A stretch of 64,000 nt of DNA, taken from positions 2,556,803 to 2,620,802 of the forward strand of contig NZ_CP138858.1 in assembly GCF_033878955.1 (NCBI RefSeq). The letters run 5' to 3'. The number at the start of each line of letters is the position of its first letter. Position 1 is the first letter of the stretch. Under the pieces are notes generated by a model that was not told where the DNA came from, made no database searches, and saw nothing but the letters and a program-made list of their open reading frames with translations. Source of the DNA: Coraliomargarita algicola. Its GTDB lineage: Bacteria > Verrucomicrobiota > Verrucomicrobiia > Opitutales > Coraliomargaritaceae. A program made the position numbers and the translations under genes. Shown in pieces: positions 6,634 to 38,081 of the stretch.

Positions 6634-6739
6634 ACCCCAACGTCCAACAAGCCCTCAGTCAGAATTGAGGTGAGCGACTATAACGAATTTCTCCATTTCT
6701 GGTATTGATACACCAGAACTCACTCACTTTGATTTTGTC

Positions 6740-8391: not shown

Positions 8392-8728
8392 AACTAACCT
8401 CCATAAACAAATAATTCAGTATTATGATAATATGTGAGGAAAATAACAAAACCAATCAAGACAAACCAACCACAAACATAGTCACAAAAACGATAGAATC
8501 CCCTACGTGGCCGATCCAACGGCGGTCGTCACCCCTGCGTCGCTTTCAGCTATGCATTGAGCTGCCCCCGACAAAAAGAATCCGCGACTCAACTAGCAGT
8601 GCACTGGGCTTTCAGGTCTCAGCATAGCGGTGGCTTGGATTCACGTCCATTCACGTCCATTCACGGTTAAGTATTGTAGTTACCTGATGGATACCAGTTC
8701 CAGAAAAGGATCTGTGTTCCTCGCTGCT

Positions 8729-10247: not shown

Positions 10248-10249
10248 TT

Positions 10250-15600: not shown

Positions 15601-18600
15601 TTTGCGCTGAGCGGCGCGGCTCTCTTTGAAGACGAAGGCGCACTCAGCCTGGAGCTCGTTCGTTACGGCGATCACACGCAGGCCGCTTCCGTCCGTGTCC
15701 GTAGTGTGGATGGCACAGCCGTCTCGCCCGCCGATTTTGCCGCGATCGATCAAACTATTAGCTGGGCCGCGGGCGATGCCAGCTCGAAGACTGTGAGCAT
15801 TACGCTAGTCGATGATGCGGCGATTGAAGGCGATGAAAACTTTAGCCTGCAACTCTCCGAAGTTACCGGAGGCAGCCTCGTCTCTGACACGTTGACCGTG
15901 ACTCTCTACGACGATGATTCCCTCGCGCAGATCACTGAGCCGCCTGTCGATACATTTGCTGTGCTCGGTCAGTCCGCCACGCTCAGCGTCACGGCGACCA
16001 GCCCCAGCACCATGAGCTATCAATGGTATTTCAATGGACAACCGATTGCCTCCGCGACCGATGCCACTTATAGCATCCCCTCGGTTGCCGAGGCGAATGA
16101 AGGCAGCTACAGCGTGCGCATCAGCAACGACTACGGCAGCCTCGATTCCGATGAAGTGTCGCTCACCATCATCCCCGATCCGGCCGCGCTGGTGAGTGGA
16201 TACACCGGTATTACCCTTAACAGCGGCGTCGTTGCGCTCGATGTCGCGCCCGATGGCAGTGTGATCATCGTCGGCGGGTTCACCGATGTGGGCGGCCATA
16301 CGGCGATCGACTATGTGGCCAAAGTCGATGCCAGTGGCAATCTCGATACCAATTTCGTGCCAGCCGCGATCGCGAGCGGTTCCGTCCATGACGTCGCTTT
16401 GCAAGACGACGGAAAGGTCGTGATCGTCGGCTCTTTTTACACCGTCGGCGGCGAAAGCCTGCGCGGCATGGCCCGTCTCAATGCCGACGGCTCACTCGAC
16501 ACCGACTTTGCCAGCAACATTGCTGCCGGCACCACTGGCGCCGCCAATGCAGTCGATATTCTTAGCGACGGACGCATCGTATTCGGAGGCAGCTTTACCT
16601 CATGGAATAATCAATACATCGGTGCCTACAGCGCTGCGGTGGCCAACGCCGACGGCAGCTACGCGGGGGCTATGTCGAAAAACGACTCGCAAACGATCGG
16701 AGCAATCAAAGCACTCCCCGATGGGGGCGCTCTGGTCACGGCCAGCACCACATCATCCTCGCGGCAAAAGGTCTACAAGTATGATGCCAACCTGGTGGGC
16801 CAGAGCTTCACCTATTCATCCGGGCGCACCCGGGTGGATGCGATCGACCTCGCGCCCGACGGGGACTATCTCTTCGCCGGAAACGGTCAGGTGCTCAAAA
16901 TCAATCCCGATGGCAGCACCGATCAATCTGCTTCGCTCTACAATGCCACCGAGATAGCCGCTCAAATCAACGGAAAGTACATCGCCGCCGGTGGCTCTGG
17001 CAGCGGCCGGACCGTGCGCTATCTCTCGAACGGCACGGTCGATCCTTCCTTTGCTGACGGCACCGGTTTCAATAATTCCGTCAAAGATCTCGCGATTCGC
17101 CTGGATGGCAAAGTCTGGGTCGGCGGTAACTTTACCAGCTACAACGGCAGCGCCGTCAGCTATCTTGCGCTGCTCAATGGTGATCCCATCCCGCTGGCTC
17201 TGACTGTCCAGCCCGCCGCGCTCACGGTAGTTGATCCCGGCGAGGACGTTACCCTGACCGTTGCAGCGGTCGGCACCTCGGCCCTGAGCTACCAATGGTT
17301 CCACGATGGTGATCCGCTGGTCGATGGCGCAGGCATTGCCGGTAGTCAAAGCGCCAGCCTGGTGCTCAGCGCGGTCGATGATTTGGACAACGGCGACTAC
17401 ACGGTGGTCGTGAGTAACGAAGCCGGCACCCGCACCAGCGAGATCGCGCAAGTCATCGTCTTGGGCGCTCCGCAGATTTTGAGTCTCTCCGAGGATGTCA
17501 GCCTGCTGGAGGGCAGTTCGCTCACCTTGGAAGTCGAGGCCCTCGGCGCCGGCACGCTCAGCTATCAATGGTATCGCGACGGCACTCTGTTGCCGACGCA
17601 GACTGCGGCCACGCTGAGCATTGCCCCTCTCTCCGAAGCCGATGCAGGCAGCTATACCGTGGTGGTGAGCAACAGTATTGATGACACCCCCAGCGCCGGC
17701 ATCGAAGTTGAGGTGTTGGCCAACGCCGCGGCGATTGCACCGGGCTTTACGCCGCCCACAGTCACCGGTGGTCCAGTCAACCAAGTGCTGCCCCTGCCGA
17801 ACGGACGCGTGCTGGTCGGTGGTAATTTCGCATCGATCAGCGATGGTGTGAATACCTCCGGTGCCCGCCTCGCCGTGGTCGACGAGACCGGAGCCGTCAT
17901 TCCCGTGACAGGACTCTCCGCCGATGGCTCAATCGAATCGTTGCGCCTACAGGCAGACGGCAAAATTCTGCTCGCGGGCGGGTTTAACAATATCGGCAAC
18001 AGTGCCCGCGGGAAGCTCGCCCGTCTCAATGCCGACCTCAGCCTCGACACGGTGTTCAACCCGACTGGTCTGGTCGGCTCGTATTTCGGAGCTTTCGATA
18101 TTGCAGAGGAAGTCGGCGGCACGATCATCGCCGTGGGCTCCTTTACTGACTTCGGTGGTGAGCCCACTGCCGACTACGCCGTCCGTCTCAACGATGATGG
18201 CTCCTATAACAGCAGCTTCACCTCCGGCGCGAGTAATTGGATCTATCGCGTCTTTCCACAGGCTGATGGCAAGCTGATCTTCAGCGGGTGGTTCGGTGCT
18301 TGGGGCGGCACTGGAGATGAATACATTACCCGCACCGATGCGTCCGGAGCGCAGGATACCACGATCGATTACAACACCGGTTTCTTCTACACCAGCGATG
18401 CCTTTCAGCTCGCCAACGGCGATCTGCTCGCCGCCAGCTCCTATGGCGGCGGCGCGATTCGTCTGGCCGCCGACACAGGTGCCACCATCAGTCCCTTCCC
18501 GGTCGGTGGTAATATTGTGGGTGCTGTTCGTGCTTTTGCCGAAAGCCCCGCAGGCGATATTTATATCGGGGGCTATGTGAGCAGCGCCGCCGGGCAAACC

Positions 18601-19230
18601 GCGGGCCGTCTCATCCGCCTGGACGCGGCGGGCAATCGTGACTTCAACTTCGATACCGGGACCGGCTTTGACAACTACGTCAATGATCTCGCGTTGACCG
18701 ACAGCGGTCGCATCTGGGCGGGCGGAGAGTTTACCACTTATAACGGAATCACTGCGTCCAAACTCGTGCTGCTCAAAGGTAGCGCCGTGAGCGCGCCCAG
18801 TGATCCATTCGAGACCTTCGTCGCCTCGCTCCCCGCCAATCAACAAGGCGAAGACGACGATGCCGATGGCGACGGCTGGGCCAACCTGGTCGAGTTCCTG
18901 TTTGGCACTGCGCCCGACGATGCCTCTGCCGCGCCCGCGCCATTGCCCACCGGTTCGGTGCAAAGTGGCAGCAGTTTGAACAGCAGCTACGGCTTGTCCC
19001 TCGACGCGGCCAAGAGCTACCGCGTGGTTGAAGTCGAAATTCCCGTGGATCTGCAAGGCTTGAGCGTGACCCTCGAAGCCAGCCAGGATCTCAGCTTCAG
19101 CGGCGACGCCAGCGCAACCGAAATCGGCACGCCGATCAATAACGGAAGCACCGAAATCCGCCGCTACGTGATCACCCCCGCAATCGACGATGCCGCCAAG
19201 ATGTTCTGGCGACTCAAGGTCAGCCGTTGA
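12616..19230 (+). CDS. giant (2204 aa) secreted cell-surface repeat protein
   Basis: Signal peptide. Many delta-60-type repeats (LNADGSLDTSF). Calx-beta-like modules (DDxxxEGDExFS.LS). Ig-like modules ending in ...YQW. Asp-rich Ca-binding segment DDDADGDGW. Confidence 0.8.
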   Translation: MQRNALFTAVSLFATASLPTTALQAAPDTVDPIFAASAGHVFDPAETGGVSSVLVQPDGKVLFGSNEMVGNFGGTTRRTALTRFNPDGTVDSYFFADNEPTGSDSGIFYDDAGWSETHALGLQSDGKIIAAGVMQGVRDGTKLAPTVEFRSKSIVRFNADGSIDTTFQTNGTAPSSGFNYIEDITIGPDDSIYAVGGFGGFRDSEGDPYTTCYGIARLHPNGSLDTSFGLDPAEFGVPAGAPNLSGFFREATIDPSGKIYVAGSFQYGYSYPQTTIPVVARLFPNGRLDTTFNAAVPANTLSITGLELEPDGRLVVLGHTDNYQTQSFVVRLQSDGSLDSSFNLDPSITRTTARPLQRDAAGRYLLTIPDASGEAPLGVLVRITSTGAIDSNFRAEGTDSGTSFFNTFTTGFNGKIYAGSGGTEVNGVPTIKLVGFEGDVVPSSLAWTYTQIASAESAGSVILSVTRSGDLSAAASVSYATAAGSANAADFTASSGTLNWPAGVGGVQSFTVSLIDDVNVESDETFSVNLSSASGATLSAPSSVTVTIRDDDSLPVIVTPPAALTVKEGEPARFSVAVSSAVAPSFQWQKSGVDIPGATSAVYTIAATNLGSAADYNVIVTTAAGSTPSAAATLTVNPPAAVPESGVALSGVTTPGPFTLLADGSMLMLDGSSFAGYTLRKLDGTFTVDPGFSVSTTPEGNISSSSVYPSPIALPNGQFIVTGFFSEINGTVRRRLARMNADGTLDTSFVPFFNDGSFPVNEYTGYFNGLSGVHVGDSGTVYALVNSSNQGNRLFRLLADGSADPSFSTAFNYSTYSDFSALTELPDGSMLIGYVAGGYGGFVRGIRRVLPDGSFAADFPHFTTSQNVTGFALIGNDRFAAIHGNLLTIHNLEDGALLETHSFTGTLTSIQPYRGRLLLTGPTVFDSIDLPGLALFSFDGTVDDNFPGGAGPNGYVTNAQVDDQGRILVSGSFTSWNGVSAAGFARLLVERPEIGFALSGAALFEDEGALSLELVRYGDHTQAASVRVRSVDGTAVSPADFAAIDQTISWAAGDASSKTVSITLVDDAAIEGDENFSLQLSEVTGGSLVSDTLTVTLYDDDSLAQITEPPVDTFAVLGQSATLSVTATSPSTMSYQWYFNGQPIASATDATYSIPSVAEANEGSYSVRISNDYGSLDSDEVSLTIIPDPAALVSGYTGITLNSGVVALDVAPDGSVIIVGGFTDVGGHTAIDYVAKVDASGNLDTNFVPAAIASGSVHDVALQDDGKVVIVGSFYTVGGESLRGMARLNADGSLDTDFASNIAAGTTGAANAVDILSDGRIVFGGSFTSWNNQYIGAYSAAVANADGSYAGAMSKNDSQTIGAIKALPDGGALVTASTTSSSRQKVYKYDANLVGQSFTYSSGRTRVDAIDLAPDGDYLFAGNGQVLKINPDGSTDQSASLYNATEIAAQINGKYIAAGGSGSGRTVRYLSNGTVDPSFADGTGFNNSVKDLAIRLDGKVWVGGNFTSYNGSAVSYLALLNGDPIPLALTVQPAALTVVDPGEDVTLTVAAVGTSALSYQWFHDGDPLVDGAGIAGSQSASLVLSAVDDLDNGDYTVVVSNEAGTRTSEIAQVIVLGAPQILSLSEDVSLLEGSSLTLEVEALGAGTLSYQWYRDGTLLPTQTAATLSIAPLSEADAGSYTVVVSNSIDDTPSAGIEVEVLANAAAIAPGFTPPTVTGGPVNQVLPLPNGRVLVGGNFASISDGVNTSGARLAVVDETGAVIPVTGLSADGSIESLRLQADGKILLAGGFNNIGNSARGKLARLNADLSLDTVFNPTGLVGSYFGAFDIAEEVGGTIIAVGSFTDFGGEPTADYAVRLNDDGSYNSSFTSGASNWIYRVFPQADGKLIFSGWFGAWGGTGDEYITRTDASGAQDTTIDYNTGFFYTSDAFQLANGDLLAASSYGGGAIRLAADTGATISPFPVGGNIVGAVRAFAESPAGDIYIGGYVSSAAGQTAGRLIRLDAAGNRDFNFDTGTGFDNYVNDLALTDSGRIWAGGEFTTYNGITASKLVLLKGSAVSAPSDPFETFVASLPANQQGEDDDADGDGWANLVEFLFGTAPDDASAAPAPLPTGSVQSGSSLNSSYGLSLDAAKSYRVVEVEIPVDLQGLSVTLEASQDLSFSGDASATEIGTPINNGSTEIRRYVITPAIDDAAKMFWRLKVSR

Positions 19231-22872: not shown

Positions 22873-23928
<1,056 letters not shown>

Positions 23929-24698: not shown

Positions 24699-24810
24699 AG
24701 TTTGATTCTTCCGAACATTGCATGTCTACTGTGGTCCGATCTCTCCAGAGCCTTTCCCTGACACCGAGAACCGTTATGTCTTTCAGGCTTTATCCACTAG
24801 ATATATCGCG

Positions 24811-25620
24811 ATGATGACAAGCTCAGTGGCCACTCTCGTTAAGCAACTCCAAGCCGCCGGCGAAGCTGCGGGCTTCCAAGTCACGCACTTCGGACAGGTC
24901 GGCCTGGAAAAGCAATGGCCCCTACTCGGCATGACGCGTGCGCCCATGGTCCCTGCACCGAATAGTCAGCACATATATCTCTCTGCCGGCATCCACGGCG
25001 ACGAGCCCGCCACTTCTCAGGCAATGCTCGAACTATTGCAAAGTAACGCCCTCCCCCACGCACATCACTACTACATTTGTCCTCTCTTAAATCCCGCGGG
25101 ACTGGCCAACGGCACCCGCGAAAACCCCGACGGCATCGACCTCAACCGCGACTACCGCGACTTCGTCTCGCAAGAAACCCGCCAACACGCAGCGTGGATA
25201 CAGGCCCACATCTCCCAGCTCGACTGTGCCATCCATCTACACGAAGACTGGGAAAGCCAAGGCTTCTACCTCTACGAAATCCAACTCCCCCGCCACAGCA
25301 GTCATCCCGAGACAGGCCGCCCACAACTCAGCCTCGCACAGCGCATCTTAGCCGCCACAGAAAAACACCTGCCCACCGAAACCGCGACCGAGATCGATGG
25401 CTACCCTGCTAAGGACGGAATCATACGCATCGAAGTCGAACTACAACTCGAAGAAGGCCAGCCCGAAGCGCTTTGCCTACAAGCAAGCTTCGGCGGCAGT
25501 AACTACACCCTCGAAACCCCGTCCGCCATGGAGTTCCGCAAGCGTGTCGACACGCTCAAAGCCGCCGTTTTGGCAGCCATCGAAACAGAGCATAATTCAA
25601 GCGTTTACTCGCCATTATGA
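24811..25620 (+). CDS. M14-family zinc carboxypeptidase / succinylglutamate desuccinylase-aspartoacylase family
   Basis: SAGIHGDEPA (HxxE zinc ligands) and LHEDWE. The start is inferred at MMTSSV (24811). Confidence 0.6.
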   Translation: MMTSSVATLVKQLQAAGEAAGFQVTHFGQVGLEKQWPLLGMTRAPMVPAPNSQHIYLSAGIHGDEPATSQAMLELLQSNALPHAHHYYICPLLNPAGLANGTRENPDGIDLNRDYRDFVSQETRQHAAWIQAHISQLDCAIHLHEDWESQGFYLYEIQLPRHSSHPETGRPQLSLAQRILAATEKHLPTETATEIDGYPAKDGIIRIEVELQLEEGQPEALCLQASFGGSNYTLETPSAMEFRKRVDTLKAAVLAAIETEHNSSVYSPL

Positions 25621-28600
25621 TTCACACTGATTCGACTCAGCAAAGAATCGATTGAACTGATCAAGGTATTCAGAACACGTAACGAAGACTCATCCAGACT
25701 GAAGGCGACTTCTTGCTTACTGGTTTCGCTTAGCTCGAGTATTTGCTCACGCTGTGGCACGACTGCTTCGCGGATGGCTTGGCTGAGCTCGCGACTCTGT
25801 CCATTGGACTGCTGCAAGTGCGCGCTGATGCCTTGCAATGCTGCTAACAACTGAGGCAAATTATCGGCACCGAACTGCTCGAAGTCTGATCGCTGGGCAC
25901 GCACACGCTCGGCAGATAACGCGCCTTGATCTTGAACGACTGTCGCGAGCTGCTGGATCGCCGCGCCGATACCATTCTGCGCATCCGCTCGCCCGGAGAC
26001 AAGCGCTTGTCCGATTCCATCCAGCCCCTCTTTGAAGTCGGACAATTGCGCCACCACACGATTGATGGGGTCGCCCTCGCTGCCACCTAATAGCTTTTTA
26101 CGATTGAAGCGCTTCTTAATCTCATCCCAACGTGCACGTTCCTGTTCGGAAAGCTTGCCTTCAATCTCCTTAAATTTGAGTAGATTCGCTTCCGCTCCGT
26201 CAGTCAGAGTTTGTGCCTCTCCCGTGTAGTGATCGACAATGAGTTGTTCCACCTCTTCGTCGGTCATGATCGGCAAAAGCTTTTCAGCGATCCGATTCAT
26301 ATTACGATAGGAACCCTGCAACTTAAAGGAAGGCTCGGTGCGATAATCATCTGCCTGCGCAGCCGAACGGACGTATTCCAAGTTCACGCGTAGAATCGTA
26401 TCGCGCACCCGCATCATCATCTTCATCACCGCGACCATGTCATTGATCTCCTCCATGGAATAAGAGGATTCAAAGGTGACACCTTCACGTTGTCCCGTCT
26501 CAGCAATTTGCATTACAGCATACACATCCTTACGATCCTTACCTGCAAGAATCCCTAAGGTCCGATTCGAAGTCAGTGAGTTCTCGATATACGAGGCCTC
26601 GAAGTATTGACTATTCTCACCAATGATATCTCCCAGGTTATAAGTGTCGGCACGATTCGCCAACATATCAGGAATCTGAAACTTCCCCCCCGCCTCGGTA
26701 TAAGGATTGCCCGCCATAACTACAGCGACTTTACGCCCGCGAAAATCATAGGTGCGCGACTTCCCTTTATACACACCTTCGATGCGGCGCGTGCCGTCGC
26801 AGAGCGAGATAAACTTCTGCAAGAACTCGGGATTGGTATGCTGAATATCGTCGAGATAGATGAGAACATTATCGCCCATTTCGAAGGCCAAATTAATTTT
26901 CTCAACTTCCTGACGCGCCGCAAGATTAGGACACTGCGCCGGATCAAGTGATGTCACCTCATGCCCGAGCGAGGGCCCATTCACTTTGACAAAGGTAATG
27001 CCCAGGCGATTCGCCACATACTCCATCAAAGTAGTCTTACCATAGCCCGGCGGCGAAATAAGCAAGAGCAAGCCCATGCGGTCGGTCCTGGTATCCTCAC
27101 CGGCACTACCGATTTGCTTCGCAAAATTATCACCGATCAACGGCAGGTAAACCTCATCCAACAAACGATTTCGAACAAAGGCACTCAACACCTGTGGCTT
27201 AAACTCATTCAATCGTAGCGAGGCCTCATTCTCAATCAACAAGGCCTTCTTGCGACGTTCATAACGAAGAAACAGCGCCTGGTCGCCCGACTCGAAACGC
27301 TGCATACGCTGCATCAGATCCAAATAATTAAAGTGATACAGCCCCCCGTCTTCAATGACCCGATGGTCCCCCTTCAGGCCCGCAAGCTCGTACTTGATCG
27401 GCACATTCAGAATCTTGCGCCGTTCGAGCCCGCCACGTAGCAAATGTGCCGCAGACTCGGGCAAGAAGGTGCGTAACTCAGGGTCGAGCGCATGCGTAAC
27501 CGCGTAGCCCTCCAACCAATCATAAATCACACGATACTCACTCAACACATCCGAGCTCACCGCTTGCACCGCCTCCTTAAATGCAGCGTCAAAGCGCTTG
27601 GACAACAATTCCCGCTGGAAACGATCGATCAAATCCGCCGCTTCTTTACTGCAATAAAGATCGGCATCCTGCACAATCTCGTAAAACAGATACGCTCCCG
27701 CGGCATGGCGATCAATCGACTCAAAGAAGGCCGTATCCTGAGCAAAAGCGCCGATCGCATCACTCAATTCCTCGATGTAATTTCGCTGGGTATGATGATT
27801 GGGAAAGACGCGCAACATTTGCCCAAAAGCGTCGATGCGTTCGCGCAAATGATTCGTCAGCGCTTGTCCTGCCTGGCTATGCCAAAAGACTAAAGCACAG
27901 GCACGCACCTCGGGACTATAACGTAACAGACCGATCTTAGAGTGCGTCTCAGCGAGTTGGTCCAGTATCACACGGGCATCAAAATCATGCACTCCTTTCG
28001 TGTAAGACTCCTGATAGCGAGGTGCCATAAATTCACGTATGGACTCTAGACGCTCCTCGTCTGTGAGCTGCAAATAATCCTCCGCGCCTTGCGATTCCAA
28101 ATACTTATACGCGAGGTCCTCCGCACGGTAGACATGATCATTCTCAGAGCAGCAATGCATCTTCCAGGCAGGCTTGGTCTCTAACAATTCCGGGTCTTCC
28201 ACCTTTTCATAAAACTGGGTACCTGAGAGGTGCGTATATAAATCGCCGTCGCGCAGCACCGACGTCAACTCCAAGGCCTGCGAGTTCACCGTGAAAGCGT
28301 GGCGCCCAAATTTAATTAAGTTTTCACCATCAACAAAGAGCTCTTGTTTATCTTTGAGCTGCCGCACCGCGTCGCCCTGAATGGTTTTCAAACGGGTCAA
28401 CAACTCGTCGCCCTTCATGCCTTCGCCCAGCGTTTTCAGCTCTTCAACTAAGTCCCGCACTTTATCAACCATTAAGTCCGATGCAAAATAGCCGTTGATA
28501 TCGTTAATTTCCTTCAGGGCTTTCGAACGATTTTCAATACCGTTGAGAATGCGCTGCGCCGATTGCACGAGCTTACTGACTCGACGATTGCGCACTTCCT

Positions 28601-30869
28601 GCAAGCTCGCCTTCTTAGATTCAAAAGTGTTATAGAGCTCGGAGCGCTTGTCAGACAGGATCTCGATAAACTCATCGAATTCTGCATACTTCCCCTCCAG
28701 CTCTTCCAACTGCACGACTGCCTTCGTCAAAAATTCATCACAACGCTCAGGCTCGTCAGCGATGTCCAAATAATTGGCCACCGATTGCTCCAACAACTTA
28801 ATCTGCGCTTGAAACTGTGCGGATCCTTCCTTGCGCATCAACTCCTGACGCGAGCGTTTCACTTCTGCCTTCAAACGATTCAGTTCGGTGAATAAATCCG
28901 AAATCGCATCGATAATGCGGGTCGTTTCGGTCGCATCCTCGATCTTCAAATTCGAGACCATTTCAATCAGCATCTCCAGCTGTGCCCCCGTAGCATCCAA
29001 CTCGGCTAGCAGCTCTTTAGCCATAGCTGCAGTTTTGATTTCAGGCATCGCAGCCTCTACCTCCTGAAGCTGCTGCTGATAAGGAACGAGCGCTTGCGCT
29101 TGCAGTAAAAATTCGACCGTCGCCTGCGCCAGTGAATCGATTTGCGTCGCCACACCTTGCTCAAGTTCATCGCAGAGTGTAAGGTCGACATATTTCAAGT
29201 CCCGCAATCCGATCACTTCGCCACGCAAACGCCGCAAGCTCGCCAAGTAATCGACAAACACACGGACATCATCAGGCTGTGCACCAGCCAATTCCGTAAA
29301 CAACTTACGCGCCTGTGTCTGAACAGCCCGAGTCTGTGTCAGCGTCGATTTGCGGATACGCTGCACTTTTTCAAACTCCGCAATCGCCGCCTGGCCAGTA
29401 TCCCGAATCTGCGACAAGGTCGCTTTCAAGTTAAAGGCATCCTCGGAGCCCAACCAGAAGTAACTATCGATGGTGGCCACACAGTCTTTGACTAAGTCGA
29501 GATACAGGCCCTCATATGCATCCTCCTTCTGCAATAAGTTGTAGATACTATGGCACTCGGCGATGCAGCGCACGATACTCGCATTGCCAATCTTAAACAG
29601 ATAGCTATCGCTATTGGCCTCCACCGAAACTTCCTCCGCAGCATAGGGCGTCTGCCAGATTTGTAAGGTATGATGCTTTTGTGGCTCGTCATGCGCCTTA
29701 AAATAAATCAAGGAACCATTCTCAAAGATACTATAGCCATGCGCTTCAATCGGACTCTCCACTTTCTGCGCAATTAGATTGTATGAAAGCAGCTGATACA
29801 GTCCCTCACTTTGCTGATAAAATACATACAGAAAGTCTTCGCCATTCGGTGCTTTTAAAACACGCTCAAATGTCATTTCGCCAGCGACATGACTAAAGCG
29901 TTTAAAGTCGCCATTGTGGAGATAATAGCCATCGGCAAAAATCACGCCGTGATCTTCTGGAAGCATCACACACGAATGCGCCACCGAATCGACACGCTTC
30001 ACCTCCTTCACCTTCTCATTATAAATAAAATAACGCGTCTGCTTCTCTTGATAAGGCTTGATTCGCAAAAAGATCAGACTGCCCACACTGGCATAGTGGA
30101 TGTCGGCATCATCGAGTGTCTGATCGGGATTGTCCACCGGCTCGGTGTAAATCCCTTCCCCGCTGTCCGTATTGTCCTCGATCTTAATGGTCAAATCGCC
30201 GCCGATGGTTTCCACGAACAAACGATCCTCGATCGATACATGCGGAAAAGTTCCGGTCCGGTGCAGATCACGATGCGCGCGCGTCCATTCAAACGAATGC
30301 TGGTCGGGGAACACATACTCTTGCTCGAAGCGATTCCCCAGATAGGTCAGCTGCTCTCCCTGAATTAACCATTTGAATACTTTAATATCCCGTAGGTCAT
30401 CGCTAATCTGAAACACCATCAACAGGTGCGGACCAACAATCATGAACTTCGCGAAGAAGGTGTTTTTGTAGTATTTGTAGAGATATTGAAAATCGGCCTG
30501 AAACTCGCTGGACTCGAGGGCATTCAGCGGCTCCTCGTGAAAGGAATGGTCGGAGACATCATAGCGAAATTTGGCGAACACATCCGTCACCTCCACCTGT
30601 GACTTCAGGCCCATGTGCACATTGTAGCCAAAAATGAAACGTCCGCCCGGCAGTGCGATCATTCCACGCGGAATACAGTTATTACTGGTCTGGATACGAT
30701 CCGTCGCCAGTAAATGAGTATCCACCGCACCGAACACAGTTTTACGCTCACCATCGAGCTGCTGCACGCGCTGCAGTAGCTCCGCACTTTGAGTCGTCAA
30801 GCGATTGCGTATGACCTCATAAGCGCCCCCCTCGAGTTTTTGCCCTGCCGCTGGATTTTGACTTTCCAT
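25605..30869 (-). CDS. giant (1754 aa) coiled-coil protein with a single AAA+ (AAA_5/MoxR-like) ATPase module
   Basis: Walker A SPPGYGKTTL, Walker B VLIYLDD and sensor-1 AVVMAGNPYTE, about 480 aa from the C-terminus. About 800 aa of coiled-coil-like sequence lie upstream. Shares an operon with flotillin and NfeD. Confidence 0.7.
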   Translation of the reverse strand: MESQNPAAGQKLEGGAYEVIRNRLTTQSAELLQRVQQLDGERKTVFGAVDTHLLATDRIQTSNNCIPRGMIALPGGRFIFGYNVHMGLKSQVEVTDVFAKFRYDVSDHSFHEEPLNALESSEFQADFQYLYKYYKNTFFAKFMIVGPHLLMVFQISDDLRDIKVFKWLIQGEQLTYLGNRFEQEYVFPDQHSFEWTRAHRDLHRTGTFPHVSIEDRLFVETIGGDLTIKIEDNTDSGEGIYTEPVDNPDQTLDDADIHYASVGSLIFLRIKPYQEKQTRYFIYNEKVKEVKRVDSVAHSCVMLPEDHGVIFADGYYLHNGDFKRFSHVAGEMTFERVLKAPNGEDFLYVFYQQSEGLYQLLSYNLIAQKVESPIEAHGYSIFENGSLIYFKAHDEPQKHHTLQIWQTPYAAEEVSVEANSDSYLFKIGNASIVRCIAECHSIYNLLQKEDAYEGLYLDLVKDCVATIDSYFWLGSEDAFNLKATLSQIRDTGQAAIAEFEKVQRIRKSTLTQTRAVQTQARKLFTELAGAQPDDVRVFVDYLASLRRLRGEVIGLRDLKYVDLTLCDELEQGVATQIDSLAQATVEFLLQAQALVPYQQQLQEVEAAMPEIKTAAMAKELLAELDATGAQLEMLIEMVSNLKIEDATETTRIIDAISDLFTELNRLKAEVKRSRQELMRKEGSAQFQAQIKLLEQSVANYLDIADEPERCDEFLTKAVVQLEELEGKYAEFDEFIEILSDKRSELYNTFESKKASLQEVRNRRVSKLVQSAQRILNGIENRSKALKEINDINGYFASDLMVDKVRDLVEELKTLGEGMKGDELLTRLKTIQGDAVRQLKDKQELFVDGENLIKFGRHAFTVNSQALELTSVLRDGDLYTHLSGTQFYEKVEDPELLETKPAWKMHCCSENDHVYRAEDLAYKYLESQGAEDYLQLTDEERLESIREFMAPRYQESYTKGVHDFDARVILDQLAETHSKIGLLRYSPEVRACALVFWHSQAGQALTNHLRERIDAFGQMLRVFPNHHTQRNYIEELSDAIGAFAQDTAFFESIDRHAAGAYLFYEIVQDADLYCSKEAADLIDRFQRELLSKRFDAAFKEAVQAVSSDVLSEYRVIYDWLEGYAVTHALDPELRTFLPESAAHLLRGGLERRKILNVPIKYELAGLKGDHRVIEDGGLYHFNYLDLMQRMQRFESGDQALFLRYERRKKALLIENEASLRLNEFKPQVLSAFVRNRLLDEVYLPLIGDNFAKQIGSAGEDTRTDRMGLLLLISPPGYGKTTLMEYVANRLGITFVKVNGPSLGHEVTSLDPAQCPNLAARQEVEKINLAFEMGDNVLIYLDDIQHTNPEFLQKFISLCDGTRRIEGVYKGKSRTYDFRGRKVAVVMAGNPYTEAGGKFQIPDMLANRADTYNLGDIIGENSQYFEASYIENSLTSNRTLGILAGKDRKDVYAVMQIAETGQREGVTFESSYSMEEINDMVAVMKMMMRVRDTILRVNLEYVRSAAQADDYRTEPSFKLQGSYRNMNRIAEKLLPIMTDEEVEQLIVDHYTGEAQTLTDGAEANLLKFKEIEGKLSEQERARWDEIKKRFNRKKLLGGSEGDPINRVVAQLSDFKEGLDGIGQALVSGRADAQNGIGAAIQQLATVVQDQGALSAERVRAQRSDFEQFGADNLPQLLAALQGISAHLQQSNGQSRELSQAIREAVVPQREQILELSETSKQEVAFSLDESSLRVLNTLISSIDSLLSRISVNHNGE

Positions 30870-30961
30870 AGTGGATCTACTAGCTGTTTTAAAGTTTTGC
30901 GGCGTCCGGCAGCGACACCAGTTTGGTATCGCTGCCCGCTACGCCTGGAGAATGCAAGCGA

Positions 30962-33040
30962 CTACTTCTGACCAAGCATCAGAAATTTCTGAACACTCTC
31001 GTTGGCCAAACCAAACTTCTCGGCCAAACCTGCGAGTCCGCGAATGCGACTTAGCTTATCCTGGTCATTGGTCTCTGAAGCGAGTTTCAACATCAGATTC
31101 GCCACAGACAGATCCTTCACCGTAGCCACATCGATATTAAAATCCTTGAGCCAGTTCGAAACCTGCGCTCTGAAGTATTCCGGATCTCCATTGAAGAAGG
31201 TCTCCTTCACATCAGTTAGCGCGGGACTACTGCTTAAGGTGCGCTCAAAAGACTTACCACGGGTGACGGCACCAATGATGTCATTATAGAATTCAGTGCT
31301 ACCGCCCACGATGTCGACCTTGGTATTCTTAAGCGACTCGGAAAGCACCTGAGCCTGATGGCGTGCGATCTCTTCGTTGACGCGAATGCTCTCAAGTTCG
31401 ATCTCCTTATCTTTTTCAAGGCGTAGCTTAAACTCTTCGTGCTCCTTACCGGCCTCGTTGAAGAGTTTCATCGCAGCAGCCTTTTCAGTGATGCCCTTCG
31501 CATCTGCTTCAAACTTGAGTTCAGAGGTCTTCGCGTCCGCCTCGCCCTGTCTCAGGCTTGCAGTGGCTTTGGCTTCCATCACTTTGGCTTCACCCAAACC
31601 TTGTGCTGCCGTCTCAGCGGCAACACCTTCAGCCAAATGCTTCTTCGCCAAAGCTTGCTTCACCGATGCCGCTTCTTCTGCTTCTGCGGCAATCACGATT
31701 TCCTCGGAGGACAACTCAGTCGCACGCTTACTGGACTCCGCCTTGCGCACTTGCTTATAAAACTCTTCGTCGGCCTTTAGCTTCTCTGCCTCTTGGCTGG
31801 CCTCAGCATCCTTTAAGCGAGTGAGCTTCTCACGCTCGGCCTTTTCTTCCGCATCGGTAATCGACACCCGCTTCTGACGATCGGCTGTAGCAAAGGCTTC
31901 CGTATCCTTAATCTTCTCCTGCTCGACCACGACGGTCTTTTCAACCATCACGCGCTCCTTGATCACATCCTGAATATTACGTTTCTCGATTTCGACGGCT
32001 TTGGTCTTTTCGATGTCTGCCAAGGTGGTGACCTTATCACGCTCCACCACTTCAAGCTGGCGGTCGCGCTCAACACGCTCTGTTTCAACCGCTTCCGTCT
32101 TTTGCTTATTCTTTTCTGCGACAATCACTTGGCGCTCCATATTCTGTTGCGCGATTTGTAATTCCTCCTCGGTATTGATCCGGGCCTGCTCGGCGCGTAA
32201 ACGTTGCTCTTCGGAGACACGCTTCGCCTCCGCCTCTTCACGAGAGCGGATCACCGCGATCTCACGCTTCTGCTTCTCTTCCGCTTCCGCCTGTTGCTTC
32301 TCCATCTCCAACACGGCTTCGATACGCTGCACATCGTTTTGCTTGATGGTTTGGATGCGGCGATTGGCGATCTCATTCTCCAGAATTGCTTGCGTCGCGG
32401 TACGCTCAGCAATCTTCTTGATACCCTCAGAGTCTAAAATGTTATCAGGATTCAATGCCTCCAGTGGCGTTTGCTCGAGGTAGTCAATGGCCACGTCTTC
32501 CAGCGCATAACCATTCAAATCCTGCCCAATGACTTCGATGATCTTATTACGAAAATCAATGCGATCGGTGTAAAGACTCTCAAAGTCGAACTGCTTACCC
32601 GCAGTCTTTAAAGCCTCCGAGAACTTCGCATCAAATAGCTCGCGAATCTTATCCAGATCCGATGCACGCTCACAACCGACGGCCTTCGCGACCGCTTTGA
32701 CATCGTTCTCGTGTGGGTTCACCCGCACATAGAAGCCCACACTGATATCCGCTCGCACGTTATCTTGGCAAATCAGGCCGTCCTTACCACGGCGATCCAA
32801 GGGCAAGTGCTGCACCCGCAAATCCATGATCTCCAATTTGTGCAGGACCGGCACACTCACCATACCCGCAAACGAGACCTGTGTGCCACCAAAGCCATTA
32901 CGCACCAGCGCATAGCCTTGATCCACCTTACGGTACATTTTAATCAGTGTGACCAACAGGCCCACAATCGCCGCAGCAATCCCCAGCAACACTGTGAGTC
33001 CCACAGATTCAATAATAGCAAGTGAGTATAATATATTCAT
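30962..33040 (-). CDS. flotillin (SPFH/Band-7) family protein, YqiK-like
   Basis: N-terminal TM anchor, SPFH core and a long EA-rich coiled-coil tail. Confidence 0.85.
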   Translation of the reverse strand: MNILYSLAIIESVGLTVLLGIAAAIVGLLVTLIKMYRKVDQGYALVRNGFGGTQVSFAGMVSVPVLHKLEIMDLRVQHLPLDRRGKDGLICQDNVRADISVGFYVRVNPHENDVKAVAKAVGCERASDLDKIRELFDAKFSEALKTAGKQFDFESLYTDRIDFRNKIIEVIGQDLNGYALEDVAIDYLEQTPLEALNPDNILDSEGIKKIAERTATQAILENEIANRRIQTIKQNDVQRIEAVLEMEKQQAEAEEKQKREIAVIRSREEAEAKRVSEEQRLRAEQARINTEEELQIAQQNMERQVIVAEKNKQKTEAVETERVERDRQLEVVERDKVTTLADIEKTKAVEIEKRNIQDVIKERVMVEKTVVVEQEKIKDTEAFATADRQKRVSITDAEEKAEREKLTRLKDAEASQEAEKLKADEEFYKQVRKAESSKRATELSSEEIVIAAEAEEAASVKQALAKKHLAEGVAAETAAQGLGEAKVMEAKATASLRQGEADAKTSELKFEADAKGITEKAAAMKLFNEAGKEHEEFKLRLEKDKEIELESIRVNEEIARHQAQVLSESLKNTKVDIVGGSTEFYNDIIGAVTRGKSFERTLSSSPALTDVKETFFNGDPEYFRAQVSNWLKDFNIDVATVKDLSVANLMLKLASETNDQDKLSRIRGLAGLAEKFGLANESVQKFLMLGQK

Positions 33041-33044
33041 TTTT

Positions 33045-33716
33045 TTAGATCTTGGTTAATTCGTTGGTTATTTTCCTGACTGTATAAAGCATGTGCTGTG
33101 AATCCTCACTGATGATTAAAGCGGAATCTCCCGCTAGCAGCGGCCCGGATTCGGAGGCTGAGCGTACATTGATGACCAAGGGCCCCTCCGGGGTGCTGAC
33201 TTCCGCTTGTCCAAAATGAGCGTCCACACGATCTGAGCGCACACGGCAGGTGCGGCCAATCATCGTGAGATTACCATCAGTCTTATCCTCGAGGCGTTTG
33301 TAGAATACCGCCACCGGCCACAAAGCCAGTGACGAAATAATCAATCCAGGAATCGCGACTGCAAAAGAAACGGCGAAACCAATCACTCCAGAATTACCGG
33401 AGTTAAGATAAAAGTTACCAATTAAAGCCATCGCCCAAGCACAAATCACCAGCCCAGACACCACCACCATCAAGGGCAAACTCCCCAAATGAATAAACTC
33501 CATGACACCCGCTAATGCCCCCGCACCGGGATTGGCATCCACATCCACGTCCGCGTCTACGTCGACATCCGCATCGACATCCAGGTCGAACCCAAGGAAA
33601 TCCAAATCCACGATCCCAAAAACCGCAATGAGCCAGTACAACAATACCAGGACCAACATTAGGGTCCATGGCAAATTATACCAACGTAGGGCTTCAGTAA
33701 ACAATTCTTCAATCAT
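33045..33716 (-). CDS. NfeD/YqiJ-like inner-membrane protein
   Basis: Multi-TM N-terminus, acidic (DVDA)n linker and a C-terminal OB-fold-like domain. Sits 4 bp upstream of the flotillin, as in E. coli yqiJK. Confidence 0.6.
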   Translation of the reverse strand: MIEELFTEALRWYNLPWTLMLVLVLLYWLIAVFGIVDLDFLGFDLDVDADVDVDADVDVDANPGAGALAGVMEFIHLGSLPLMVVVSGLVICAWAMALIGNFYLNSGNSGVIGFAVSFAVAIPGLIISSLALWPVAVFYKRLEDKTDGNLTMIGRTCRVRSDRVDAHFGQAEVSTPEGPLVINVRSASESGPLLAGDSALIISEDSQHMLYTVRKITNELTKI

Positions 33717-33828
33717 GCAATTTCAGGGCAGAATGATAACACGAAATCTGAGAAGATATATTACAATAAGCGAGCGATTTTATACAATCACCTTGCCTAA
33801 ATAAGCAAAAACCTCGAAATCCTTAAGC

Positions 33829-34311
33829 GTGCAATCTCACGAAATCATCAAAACTTGCTTTGCCAACAGCTCCCCCAAGGCGCTCGCCGCCGAGCTCGGC
33901 ATTTCGCAATCGCTCATCTACAAATGGTCACAACCGGTGGGCGAGTCTCAGAGCGGCTCCAAAAATCCGCTAGACAGAGTCTGCGCCCTCAACCAGGCCT
34001 GCAGCGATAACCAACTGATCAAATGGCTCGCCGCTCAGGCTGACGGCTACTTCGTACCGAATAAAGTGGTGCACTCTGAGCTCGATGCACTCAACCCCGC
34101 CACGCACGAAATGGTCAGCCAATTCGCCTCCCTACTGGGAGCCATCGCCCACGCAGGACTCGACGAGAGAATCACCCGCGAAGAAGCGGCCGACATACGG
34201 CAGCGCTGGGACACCTTAAAGTCCTTTGCCGACGGCTTTGTAAATGCCTGCGAACGCGGCGACTTCGATAAAATGAAGGAAATCGAAAAACAGTGGCAGC
34301 AGAGCAGTTAG
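33829..34311 (+). CDS. phage CII-like / YdaS-type HTH DNA-binding protein
   Basis: HTH LAAELGISQSLIYKWSQP. Divergent from the yqiJ-flotillin-AAA operon. Confidence 0.45.
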   Translation: MQSHEIIKTCFANSSPKALAAELGISQSLIYKWSQPVGESQSGSKNPLDRVCALNQACSDNQLIKWLAAQADGYFVPNKVVHSELDALNPATHEMVSQFASLLGAIAHAGLDERITREEAADIRQRWDTLKSFADGFVNACERGDFDKMKEIEKQWQQSS

Positions 34312-34507: not shown

Positions 34508-34540
34508 AAAGCCCCGCAACTTTGCAGCTGCGGGGCTCTA
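34508..34540 (-). terminator. rho-independent terminator after rpsJ
   Basis: agccccgcagctgcaaagttgcggggct followed by tttt on the minus strand. Confidence 0.5.
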
Positions 34541-34583: not shown

Positions 34584-34892
34584 TTAGACGTTGATAGAAA
34601 TATCAACACCAGCAGGGAGGTTGAGCTTCTTGAGCTCGTCCACTGTGGCTGCAGTCGGCTCGACGATGTCGATCAAACGCTTGTGTGTGCGAACTTCGAA
34701 CTGATCCATCGACTTCTTATTAACGTGAACGGAACGATTCACAGTGAACTTTTCGATTTTAGTAGGAAGGGGCACAGGGCCAGCAACGCGAGCGCCGGAA
34801 CGCTTAGCTGTTTCGACGATGTCCGCAGCGGACTGGTCAATTACGCGATAATCAAAGCCTTTGAGGCGAATACGGATACGTGGTGTGCTCAT
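34584..34892 (-). CDS. rpsJ: 30S ribosomal protein S10
   Basis: [21 protein letters not shown]... is canonical S10. Confidence 0.95.
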
Positions 34893-34958
34893 ATTATATA
34901 TTTGTTTGGTTAAGTTGTTGGTTTAAAAATTCGTTTTACTGAACTCGCTGGTCTCGCT

Positions 34959-37106
34959 CTAGTAACGGCCGCGAGTCGAGGTTTCTAAAATTTTATTGAG
35001 AACGTTTTGTGGAACCGCCTCGAAGGACTCAGGCTGCATACTATAAGAGGCACGCCCCTTACTGAGTGAACGCACAACAGTGGCGTATCCGAACATTTCC
35101 TGCAAGGGCACCAGAGCAGCGATTGTAACAAACGCAGTCTTGCCCACCACATTCTGGATCTGACCACGGCGACGGTTCAAATCTCCCATGATATCGCCCT
35201 GATACTCGTCGGGCGTCTCCACCTCGACCTTCATCATCGGCTCCAGCAATTGCGGACCGGCCTTTTCCATAGCATCACGGAATGCAAAGATACCGGCCAT
35301 TTTGAACGACATCTCCGAGGAGTCGACCTCATGAAAGGAGCCATCAAAGAGTGTGACCTTGAAATCAACAACGGGATAACCGCAGACGGAACCATTGTTG
35401 GCGGCTTCGCGTATGCCATCCAAGGTGGGCTTGATAAATTCCTTGGGAATCACGCCACCGACCGTCTTATCTACGATTTCAATTCCAGCTCCGCGCTCCA
35501 GTGGCTCCAGCTTAATGCGTGCGTGACCATACTGACCACTTCCACCGGTTTGGCGCACAAACTTACCCTCACCCTCAGATGCCATGGTAACTGTTTCACG
35601 ATAGGCGATCTGCGGACGGCCGGCTTCAGCGCCGACTTTAAACTCACGGAAGAGACGATCCTTAATGATTTCGAGGTGCAGTTCGCCCATGCCGGCAATG
35701 ATAGTCTGACCGGTTTCTTCATCCGAACTCACCACAAAGGTAGGATCTTCTTCGGACAGGCGCTGCAAACCGGTCGCCATCTTTTCTTGATCGGCGGTAG
35801 TCTTCGGCTCGATGGACATCGAGATCACCGGCTCTGGAAATGTGGGTGGCTCAAGGCGCACATCAAATCCCTTAGCACACAATGTATCGCCCGTAACGAC
35901 ATCGCGCGCACCGACGATCGCGCAAATATCCCCCGAGTAAGCCACATCAATGTCTTCACGGGAATCTGCCTTCATGACCAGCAGTCGCGAAATTCGCTCG
36001 GTTTTACCCGTGCGCGGATTGTAAAGGGCAGTGCCTTTCGCAAGTGTGCCTGAATAAACCCGCATAAAAACGAGCTTACCCACATAGCCGTCATTCATCA
36101 GCTTAAAAGCAAGTCCGGCAAATTGAGCGTTATCGTCGGGGGCGACTTCGAGATCGCGTCCTTGCTCGGTCTCCCCCTTCATCGGTGGCAAATCAAGCGG
36201 GCATGGCAAATAGTTGACAACGGATTCGAGAACCGCTTGCACCCCCTTGTTCTTAAAGGCACTGCCAGGAATCACTCCACAGAAGCCCAGCGAAATCGTG
36301 GCGGCACGAATGGCAGCACGAATATCGTCTGCAGAAAGTTCTTCACCTTCGAGGTATTTATCAGCCAGCGCGTCATCAAAATCGGCAAGGGCTTCGATCA
36401 GCTTCTCGCGATACTCATTGGCTTGATCGACGTAATCGGCTGGAATCTCCGTCACATCAAAGGTCATCCCGCTAGGGTCTGCCGCGTCGTAGATGCGGGC
36501 ATTCATCGATGCCAGATCAATCAGACCTATAAAATCTTCTTCCGAACCGATCGGCAAAAAGATTGGATGGGCGTTTGCCGCGAGGCGCTCACGCATGGAT
36601 TCGATCGCAGCAAAAAAATCTGCCCCCACGCGATCCATCTTATTCACAAATGCGATGCGCGGGACATGATACTTCGTCATTTGCCGCCAGACCGTTTCGG
36701 ACTGTGGTTGCACACCAGCAACGGCACAAAAAACACCGATAGTGCCATCCAGCACTCGCAATGAGCGCTCGACTTCGGCCGTAAAATCGACGTGACCGGG
36801 AGTGTCGATGATATTGATCTTATTACAGATCCCGGCGAACGGACCCTCTTGATTGGTCCAATTGCAAGTAATCGCGGCCGAAGTGATCGTGATGCCACGT
36901 TCGCGCTCCTGCTCCATCCAGTCGGTAACCGCGCTACCTTCATGGACTTCGCCCATTTTATGGACGACACCTGCGTAAAATAAAATTCTTTCCGTCGTCG
37001 TCGTCTTGCCCGCATCGATATGCGCAGCTATGCCAATATTACGCGTATGCTCCAAGGGGAACTTACGCTTCGGCGAGTTAGCGGACGCTGTACTAGTAGC
37101 GGACAT
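34959..37106 (-). CDS. fusA: elongation factor G
   Basis: [20 protein letters not shown] and a full-length EF-G. Confidence 0.95.
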
Positions 37107-37156
37107 AGAAGAGATTCGACTGGAAAAGAACGGGGAATGCGAGGTGAGTCCGCGGA

Positions 37157-37630
37157 CTACCAGCGCAAGTGTGCGAAGGCACGATTCGCTTGAGCCATGC
37201 GGTGCACTTCTTCCTTCTTCTTAACAACGCCACCCGTATTGTTATAAGCGTCGATAATTTCATCAGCCAAAGCCTCATTCATAGGAACGCCCTTACGGCT
37301 ACGAGCCGCATTGACCATCCAACGGAAAGCAAGTGCTTGCTGACGCTCGAAAGAGATTTCGACGGGCACTTGATACGTAGCACCACCGACACGACGGCTC
37401 TTCACTTCAAGCTTAGGACGTGAGTTCTCAAGTGCACCCATAACCAGATCGACTGGATCGCCCTTTTCGAGCTTCTCGCTGACACGCTGGAATGCGGTGT
37501 AAACGATCTTTTGAGCCACAGTGCGCTTACCACGCTCCATGATCATATTCACAAGATTGGCAACCAGAGTGCTATTATAGCGAGGATCTGGAATAAGAGG
37601 ACGTTTTACGGCTTGGCGACGACGTGACAT
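37157..37630 (-). CDS. rpsG: 30S ribosomal protein S7
   Basis: Canonical S7 sequence. Confidence 0.95.
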
Positions 37631-37700
37631 AGTAAGAAAGAAATAAGATTTAAGAAATCAGAATTAAGAAACACCTAATTTAAGAAGCACTTAACAGGCT

Positions 37701-38081
37701 TCAGGAAGCCTCCTTAGGACGCTTCACGCCATACTTAGAACGGCTACGGCGACGCTTCTCTACTCCAACACAGTCAAGTGTGCCACGAACGATGTGATAG
37801 CGAACACCAGGAAGGTCCTTCACACGACCACCACGCACCAGCACGATACTGTGCTCCTGCAAGTTGTGACCTTCATCAGGAATGTAGGCAATCACTTCGA
37901 TGCCATTAGTCAGACGAACCTTAGCCACCTTACGGATAGCAGAGTTCGGCTTTTTAGGCGTACGAGTCATAACTTGAACACAGACACCACGGCGAAATGG
38001 GTTCTTGTCCAGGTGACGAGACTTGGATTTTACCTTTTGAACAACACGAGGGTTGCGGACTAGTTGGTTAATTGTTGGCAT
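37701..38081 (-). CDS. rpsL: 30S ribosomal protein S12
   Basis: MPTINQLVR...PKKPNSA is canonical S12. Confidence 0.95.

Follow-up and report, generated by a model that had tools for sequence, protein, structure and literature searches.

The closest described relative of the system studied here is an operon reported by Ravi et al. (mSystems 2024, PMC11237479; preprint 2020), in which CesT/Tir and PspA are joined to three further genes, among them one for a YqiJ/YuaF-type membrane protein. According to the operon descriptions in that paper, "abbreviated operons" composed of flotillin, the YqiJ/YuaF protein and sometimes the ATPase are more widely distributed; its supplement gives the gene order for Dokdonia donghaensis (prototype ANH61663.1), and the authors infer a role in sub-membrane assembly and dynamics. 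Here we analyse a stretch of 64,000 nucleotides (nt) from Coraliomargarita algicola (assembly GCF_033878955.1, contig NZ_CP138858.1, positions 2,556,803-2,620,802 of the forward strand), hereafter the window, which carries an operon of this kind: an NfeD-like membrane protein, a flotillin and a giant ATPase of 1754 amino acids (aa). The feature is real, strongly conserved, already known and functionally uncharacterised. The association of flotillin with the giant protein had been recognised by comparative genomics, and both Pfam and NCBI have annotation for the family.

The locus is composed of four genes, for which the open reading frame (ORF) list reproduces exactly the coordinates given in an earlier note on this DNA. 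They are listed here, in window positions, together with the terminator of the adjacent ribosomal unit.

33045-33716, minus strand: YqiJ/YuaF-type NfeD-like membrane protein, 223 aa, first gene of the operon (ORF list)
30962-33040, minus strand: YqiK-family flotillin, 692 aa (ORF list)
25605-30869, minus strand: giant ATPase, predicted soluble, 1754 aa (ORF list)
33829-34311, plus strand: CII-like transcription factor, 160 aa, divergent (ORF list)
34508-34539, minus strand: strong intrinsic terminator after rpsJ, with a 14 base pair (bp) stem, 8 G-C pairs and a T-rich tail

The NfeD-like, flotillin and giant genes are a single same-strand unit, a three-gene operon, with 4 nt between the first two and 92 nt between flotillin and giant. 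The rpsL-rpsG-fusA-rpsJ unit ends at this terminator, which makes the flotillin operon a transcription unit of its own. At the other end, an M14/AstE-AspA-like carboxypeptidase-fold gene (24718-25620, plus strand) converges on the giant gene with a 3' overlap of 16 nt, so that in this genome nothing follows the giant gene in the operon.

In comparison with the operon of Ravi et al., the window has the same three proteins, in the same order and on one strand. The features by which that paper characterises these proteins were found here as well: a multi-pass protein of the YqiJ/YuaF type, a fusion of propeller, coiled coil and AAA+ module, and a conserved same-strand adjacency. The combination of transmembrane segment, band-7/SPFH domain, coiled coil and flotillin region was recognised through an alignment to YqiK, although the Pfam Band_7 model is silent. 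The window has no PspA or CesT/Tir gene and thus holds the abbreviated form; moreover, its divergent regulator is CII-like, whereas that given for Dokdonia is a helix-turn-helix (HTH)-plus-protease regulator. The earlier note had placed a giant ATPase outside the canonical picture of the flotillin operon, a view that is out of date, since the operon type is set out in PMC11237479.

The linkage of these genes was assessed by scanning genomes, one per species, with a 14-sequence alignment of giant proteins. The scan found at least 568 relatives, and 80 loci were kept, from Verrucomicrobiota, Planctomycetota, Bacteroidota, Desulfobacterota, Clostridia, Kiritimatiellota and Omnitrophota, with giants 44-77% identical to that of the window over about 1,600 residues. 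Linkage was counted in the 60 loci, drawn from at least seven phyla, that have at least 3.5 kb upstream of the giant gene. Flotillin lies directly upstream of the giant gene and on the same strand in 57 of these, including 18 of 18 Verrucomicrobiota, 7 of 7 Planctomycetota, 23 of 25 Bacteroidota, 5 of 5 Clostridia, 2 of 3 Desulfobacterota and the single Kiritimatiellota locus, and an NfeD-like gene precedes the flotillin in 50 of the 60. Because the gene order recurs in nearly all of these loci, the linkage of flotillin and giant is beyond chance. The earlier note had singled out a giant gene unlinked to flotillin in related genomes as the observation that would count against it, and these counts show the opposite. 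The adjacency is also annotated on plasmid pQBR103 of Pseudomonas fluorescens and on a Streptomyces linear plasmid (37-38% identity). The only recurrent clusters of neighbouring genes were flotillin, NfeD, PspA, CesT/Tir, the XRE-S24 regulator and the CII-like regulator. In three Bacteroidota loci (L040, positions 7084-8416; L069; L073) a DUF4178 gene and two uncharacterised genes come after the giant gene, all on its strand, and this recurrent run may be a lineage-specific extension of the operon.

The PspA-containing form was found in 16 of the 25 Bacteroidota loci, where CesT_Tir_1 (PF22550, 173.6 bits) and PspA (PF04012, 138.8 bits) genes lie upstream in the same orientation, beside a divergent XRE-HTH/S24 regulator. 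Their gene order (divergent XRE-HTH/S24, CesT_Tir, PspA, NfeD-like, flotillin, giant) is that of the Dokdonia donghaensis row in the supplement of PMC11237479. The giants of Flavobacteriia loci with the published order (e.g. L057, L072 and L078) are 45-47% identical to the window giant; Dokdonia itself is compared by gene order, as given in that row. The PspA-containing form is also seen, in another arrangement, on pQBR103 of P. fluorescens SBW25 (425 kb; locus L082, record positions 84437-97641). There the trio is fused to a YjfI-PspA-polyamine operon, the SPFH and giant genes ending a same-strand run that includes genes for YjfI, PspA, a rhomboid protease, DUF2491, DUF350, DUF1190 and a glutathionylspermidine synthase-like protein. 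This run appears to join two PspA operon types that stand separately among the operons described by Ravi et al.

The giant protein is 100% identical to an NCBI protein of Coraliomargarita algicola named "DNA repair ATPase". More than 4,600 homologues were found, and identity across phyla stays at 45-55%. Pfam assigns aa 30-471 to DUF3686 (PF12458) over the whole profile (1-448 of 448; 592.8 bits against a cut-off of 25, E 4.5e-178) and aa 592-676 to DUF7902 (90.6 bits, above cut-off; window 28842-29096). The models AAA (PF00004, 34.6 bits), AAA_22 (28.1 bits) and AAA_5 (25.2 bits), with starts at aa 1265-1268, all exceed their cut-offs. Two AlphaFold2 models, built from 64-sequence alignments, have a mean predicted local distance difference test score (pLDDT) of 84.8 and 80.6. 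They place in order an N-terminal helix, a beta-rich region (aa 52-406), long helices (423-841), a compact helical region (about 890-1225), the AAA+ core, conserved helices to about 1600 and a variable tail. The parts are located as follows.

29457-30782, minus strand: N-terminal beta-propeller (DUF3686, aa 30-471), predicted by Pfam, AlphaFold2 and Foldseek
28347-29603, minus strand: long-helix, coiled-coil-like region (aa 423-841) containing DUF7902, from AlphaFold2 secondary structure and Pfam
27185-28229, minus strand: compact helical domain and linker helix (aa 881-1228), confidently modelled by AlphaFold2
26355-27184, minus strand: single AAA+ module (about aa 1229-1505), from motifs and fold
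25608-26072, minus strand: variable, low-confidence helical C-terminal tail (aa 1600-1754), from AlphaFold2 and alignment

The beta-rich region has a pLDDT of about 80-93 in most blocks and resembles WD40 and other propellers of 6-7 blades in the PDB (Foldseek, E 1e-6 to 1e-4). As a family, the DUF3686 propeller domain comprises 704 clusters at 50% identity among 1.84 billion representatives, and nearly all full-length members have 1600-1900 aa with the propeller at the N-terminus. A fold search with the compact helical domain (aa 881-1228) gave matches only through the AAA+ part of the same model. Where the earlier note had described some 800 aa of coiled-coil-like sequence, about 420 aa are indeed long helices, and about 340 aa are a globular helical domain instead. 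Conservation is lowest in the tail (mean column identity 0.29, 1% invariant columns, pLDDT mostly below 65). No segment reached the transmembrane threshold in a hydrophobicity scan of the giant, which is therefore predicted to be soluble.

Conservation is highest in the AAA+ core: 57% of its columns are invariant across several phyla, and its nucleotide-binding motifs are intact. Walker A reads GPPGYGKTT, with K1278 (GYGKTT at aa 1275-1280), 479 aa before the C-terminus. Walker B is YLDD at aa 1338-1341 (D1340 and D1341), with Asp where Glu is usual, and MAGNPYTE at aa 1385-1392 supplies the sensor-1 residue N1388. All three motifs are thus where a first reading of the DNA had put them, in a module some 480 aa from the C-terminus, and R1406 is a candidate arginine finger. 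The Walker A Lys, D1340, D1341, N1388 and R1406 are invariant in both the 14- and the 64-member alignment. Foldseek relates the core to RuvB (top match), CbbQ, NorQ, ClpA and MCM, all at E of about 1e-4 and with no clear clade, while PDB sequence searches with the module returned only the Walker A surroundings of Cdc48, p97, Rix7 and RuvB and no MoxR structure. With CbbQ and NorQ among the Foldseek relatives, the label "AAA_5/MoxR-like" is compatible with the modelled fold. The definition of the MoxR clade includes a beta-hairpin insert in helix 2. In the AlphaFold2 models the stretch from strand beta-2 to helix 2 (aa 1302-1315) is only a loop and a short helix, and the hairpin that they do predict, at aa 1362-1375, precedes the sensor-1 strand.

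Regarding the 692-aa protein, Pfam gave no Band_7 or Flot match even at E<=10, and a PDB search with a 29-sequence profile of its family found no match. Direct comparison with E. coli K-12 YqiK, however, gave 27% identity over 424 aa (BLASTP, E 3e-37) and a probability of 99.95% in hhalign, in an alignment that spans the SPFH domain and the coiled coil; homologues are named "flotillin family protein" or "YqiK" by NCBI and JGI. The identification as a flotillin is thereby borne out. A single-sequence match to QmcA (E 9e-4) was rejected as evidence of relationship, being confined to the coiled coil and probably compositional. The protein is made up of an N-terminal anchor (aa 1-37), the SPFH domain, a long helical region rich in Glu, Ala and Lys, and a C-terminal region common to giant-linked flotillins. 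Basic residues (K/R) follow the anchor, and by the positive-inside rule the bulk of the flotillin would face the cytoplasm. The window flotillin is 38% identical over 607 aa to that of pQBR103 (Pseudomonas) and 41% over 673 aa to that of Streptomyces, the C-terminal region included. As these values hold across phyla, against 27% over 424 aa to YqiK, the giant-linked flotillins are, judged by sequence, a subfamily of their own.

The NfeD-like protein scores 24.1 bits against Pfam YqiJ_N (cut-off 23) and matches E. coli YqiJ by BLASTP at E 1e-4. With a 20-sequence profile, hhalign aligns it to YqiJ over the whole length (183 columns, probability 97.1%, E 5e-11), and the YqiJ_N score and this alignment confirm its proposed identity. 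In its sequence about 3-4 hydrophobic segments precede a soluble C-terminal domain.

One further feature was found in the 92 nt that separate flotillin from giant:

30901-30945, minus strand: stable RNA hairpin, from folding of the gap

The folding energy of the gap is -34.8 kcal/mol (z-score -3.6), a stability that not one of 200 shuffled sequences reached. No T-run follows the hairpin. Stem-loops are frequent in the flotillin-giant gap of other loci, and the hairpin might set the ratio of scaffold to ATPase expression. In other genomes the gap also receives genes. Small nuclease-like ones of the DUF559 and PDDEXK_3 types recur there as insertions (L038, 9524-9946; L014, 9507-9926), similar small ORFs are present in L032, L042 and L003, and in L047 a Uma2 endonuclease-like gene (5921-6508) lies just upstream of the giant. 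These DUF559, PDDEXK_3 and Uma2-type genes look like selfish insertions into the operon.

The product of the divergent gene scores 31.9 bits against Pfam Phage_CP76 and is matched by PHROG 101, "CII-like transcriptional activator", at E 2e-13; both results uphold the CII-like identity assigned to it before. Homologues are divergent in the same position in five other Verrucomicrobiota loci (L001, L002, L007, L010 and L028). In the Kiritimatiellota locus L026 the CII-like gene is upstream on the same strand, and in L036 it is found some 6 kb further away, upstream of the NfeD-like gene. Within the 112 bp that separate the CII-like gene of the window from the operon there is a palindrome:

33761-33785, no strand assigned: palindrome in the intergenic region, from a six-genome alignment

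The six genomes in which it aligns belong to different classes. Its consensus is TTACAA-N13-TT(G/A)TAA, of which the window has the variant GTATAA-N13-TTGTAA. The strict palindrome occurs nine times in about 3.2 Mb counting both strands, and four of the nine occurrences fall between the CII-like and NfeD-like genes of loci that bear the CII-like gene. Near-matches were found in the same intergenic region of L007 and upstream of the NfeD-like gene of L018. A consensus promoter scan placed promoter-like sites on the plus strand within the palindrome region and no sigma-70-like promoter on the operon strand, the total number of sites being equal to chance. The palindrome could be an operator, overlapping divergent promoters, or both. 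In L007 (Verrucomicrobiales) a second, perfect TTACAA-N13-TTGTAA was observed at 1041-1066, about 6 kb upstream of the operon, beside ORFs that look spurious.

The CII-like protein is a candidate regulator of the operon, as the earlier note had suggested from its divergent placement. That placement and the conserved palindrome in the shared region argue for the suggestion; its reach is narrower, since the data support a dedicated CII-like regulator for part of the Verrucomicrobiota (6 of 18 loci) and for Kiritimatiellota. In Bacteroidota a different regulator, XRE-HTH/S24, occupies the equivalent divergent position. The palindrome and the hairpin are small additions to the published operon and, like the CII-like regulator, were not met in its description as given in the operon sections of PMC11237479.

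Taken together, we judge it somewhat probable that the three proteins constitute a three-part machine at the inner face of the cytoplasmic membrane, with the giant as an ATP-dependent remodeller or assembly factor acting on a flotillin/NfeD scaffold in envelope stress. The YqiJ/NfeD-like protein and the YqiK-family flotillin would form a membrane-anchored SPFH scaffold facing the cytoplasm, and the soluble giant would be recruited to it, probably through contacts made by its N-terminal propeller and long helical arms. The candidate docking site is the C-terminal region that sets giant-linked flotillins apart from E. coli YqiK. The giant may then oligomerise through its single MoxR-like AAA+ module, and binding and hydrolysis of ATP would assemble, disassemble or reshape its putative substrate, either the flotillin assembly or the clients of the latter. 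The operon would belong to an envelope-stress and membrane-maintenance network that includes PspA. In Bacteroidota and on pQBR103 the trio would be co-transcribed with a CesT/Tir-like chaperone and the ESCRT-III-like PspA; here it stands alone beside the divergent CII-like protein, which may control it. A membrane-remodelling function had been put forward in the earlier note. It is plausible and agrees with the role that the operon passages of PMC11237479 infer; what points to it is gene context.

Several observations weigh against this machine. Walker B is Asp-Asp, not Asp-Glu, in every member of the giant family examined, so that the module may be a slow ATPase or a nucleotide-gated switch and not a motor. 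The loop after strand beta-2 (aa 1298-1310) has no aromatic residue, and substrate-threading AAA+ unfoldases usually have one at the equivalent pore loop. A tblastn search of the 64-kb window with proteins from related loci found no homologue of PspA, CesT/Tir or XRE-S24; for a network that includes PspA, the absence of the PspA gene is the adverse point. In three of the 60 loci (L025, L035 and L047) the giant has no neighbouring flotillin and stands among unrelated TPR, DUF4258, DUF2147, Uma2 and TonB_C genes, exceptions that look like rearrangements. Finally, literature searches on DUF3686, PF12458 and "DNA repair ATPase" with flotillin returned no papers, and no experimental work on the ATPase was found.

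A more specific picture can be drawn, which we offer tentatively and regard as rather doubtful in its entirety. The DUF3686 giant would be an ATP-driven remodeller of sub-membrane scaffolds and the functional counterpart of Vps4, docking on the flotillin/NfeD platform and recycling SPFH assemblies, PspA polymers or both during membrane repair, with a CII-like activator at the palindrome switching the operon on in this lineage.

A related alternative makes PspA the sole object of the enzyme: the giant would disassemble or recycle PspA/ESCRT-III-like polymers in membrane repair, the flotillin-NfeD pair would be its landing platform, and PspA would be encoded elsewhere in this genome. That the operon also encodes PspA and a CesT/Tir-like chaperone in the 16 Bacteroidota loci and on pQBR103 speaks for it, and it is attractive because bacteria, according to a 2025 review (PMC7619361), appear to have no Vps4-like ATPase. 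In Bacillus subtilis, moreover, the SPFH protein YdjI is reportedly needed for the membrane localisation of PspA. The idea is weakened, however, because PspA is missing from the operon in most lineages, and we consider it unlikely.

Two other alternatives keep the ATPase at the flotillin and change what it does there. In the first, resembling HflK/C-FtsH quality control, a flotillin cage would corral membrane-protein clients and the AAA+ enzyme would extract or unfold them for repair or for a separate protease. SPFH proteins are described as cages or domes in published accounts, in which HflK/C encloses the AAA+ protease FtsH, and the locus shares the overall logic of SPFH, NfeD and AAA+ proteins. 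The giant, however, has neither a protease domain nor a transmembrane segment, its loop after strand beta-2 is devoid of the aromatic residue, and no protease gene recurs among the neighbourhood clusters, all of which leaves this function with little likelihood. In the second, the propeller and helices would be a coat-like or cytoskeletal element, and the AAA+ module would be no more than an ATP-dependent oligomerisation switch. The invariant Asp-Asp Walker B would suit such a nucleotide-gated scaffold; the D2 domain of NSF, which binds but barely hydrolyses ATP, has Asp-Asp there too. Foldseek also returned weak matches to IFT-A, Vps18 and nucleoporin-type proteins that combine propeller and helices. 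These are generic propeller hits with low TM-scores, however, and the invariant sensor-1 Asn and candidate Arg finger suggest selection on hydrolysis, so a purely structural element seems improbable.

The trio could also be an anti-phage or conflict system that detects membrane damage inflicted by phage and responds to it in a protective or abortive way. Its regulators are of phage type (CII-like here, XRE-HTH with S24 peptidase in Bacteroidota), it has a link to the "phage shock" protein PspA, one copy is carried by the megaplasmid pQBR103, and the operon is a frequent target for insertion of small, selfish nuclease-like genes. Nevertheless, none of the four proteins has a match in PADLOC-DB 2.0 at E<=0.01, and no relative was found in 50,697 phage records or in 2.9 million viral contigs (IMG/VR). 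Only 13 plasmid-database records match, including records of 1.7-11.9 Mb and several plasmids of 0.39-0.56 Mb. An identity of 45-55% over about 1,600 aa across phyla was judged unusually slow change for a defence gene, and the genomic context is of housekeeping type, the two defence-like islands of the window lying elsewhere. We therefore hold a defence function to be very unlikely. The earlier note had also raised assignment of the ATPase to a known defence or nuclease system, and the PADLOC, phage and viral-contig searches gave no such assignment.

That the giant is a DNA repair ATPase acting on DNA like RuvB or an SMC-type protein, as its NCBI and Pfam names, the top Foldseek match to RuvB and weak RuvB_N matches around Walker A would have it, is extremely improbable and the name unsupported, given that RuvB_N reaches 20.8 bits against a cut-off of 27 over only 45 residues around Walker A, that the NCBIfam RuvB models score about 20 against cut-offs of 282-299, that a genuine ruvB (240.6 bits) lies nearby at 22873-23928, and that the operon partners are membrane proteins.

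The genes around the locus are of housekeeping type: ruvB (22873-23928), rpsL-rpsG-fusA-rpsJ, folD, proC, glgE and dnaE. The ribosomal unit occupies 34584-38081 on the minus strand, and there is no tuf between its fusA and rpsJ. At one end of the window, positions 2-8391 hold a defence-like cluster of five genes with lower G+C (GC) content:

2-1837, plus strand: DUF3427 helicase
2534-3439, plus strand: HNH endonuclease
5143-6633, plus strand: Fic-domain protein
6740-7327, plus strand: DUF2726 protein
7717-8391, minus strand: NERD nuclease with a topoisomerase-type zinc ribbon

The gene at 12616-19230 (plus strand) encodes a protein of 2204 aa in which DUF5122 beta-propeller repeats are combined with several Ig domains and with Calx-beta domains, and a LuxR-type two-component pair (9618-12130) adjoins it. 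A low-GC island (51409-59732, minus strand; GC content down to 0.44) carries genes for a T5orf172/MUG113-domain protein, a DEAD-box helicase-like protein and a complete MmeI-family restriction-modification enzyme (57063-59732).

The value of the operon lies in its being a well-defined but neglected target; the association itself is no new discovery. The role of bacterial flotillins is unsettled, and a slowly changing giant ATPase tied to one flotillin subfamily offers an experimental handle. It bears both on the function of flotillins in bacteria and on the way in which PspA polymers are remodelled. Tractable carriers include Pseudomonas fluorescens with pQBR103, Proteus, Vibrio, Streptomyces and Flavobacteriia.

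Comparison with known systems places the operon most directly beside the classical NfeD-flotillin pairs with SPFH2 proteins, yqiJ-yqiK of E. coli and yuaF-floT of B. subtilis, in which an NfeD-like membrane protein is likewise followed by an N-terminally anchored flotillin. The E. coli pair has no third gene, sibD/ibsD following yqiK in the annotated region, and the survey of NfeD-flotillin pairs by Hinderhofer et al. 2009 (PMC2636767) makes no mention of an ATPase. The window flotillin is 139 aa longer than E. coli YqiK and belongs to a distinct subfamily, which shares its C-terminal region with the giant-linked flotillins. Among AAA modules, those of the MoxR family (CbbQ, NorQ), midasin and dynein differ from the giant's, which has an Asp-Asp Walker B in a 1754-aa propeller/coiled-coil setting and, in the models, no predicted hairpin inside helix 2. 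No VWA-domain partner was noticed in the conserved neighbourhood, of which the Pfam scan covered part of the ORFs. As with Vps4 and ESCRT-III of archaea and eukaryotes, an AAA+ ATPase is coupled genomically to an ESCRT-III-family protein (PspA) in part of the giant family. The giant nevertheless lacks the traits of Vps4, with no MIT domain, Asp-Asp in place of the Asp-Glu Walker B and no close relative among classical AAA proteins, and PspA is absent from most giant operons, that of the window included. FtsH is a membrane-anchored protease, whereas the giant lacks a protease domain and is, by prediction, soluble; what the flotillin operon would share with HflK/C-FtsH is the combination of an SPFH scaffold with an AAA+ enzyme at the inner membrane.

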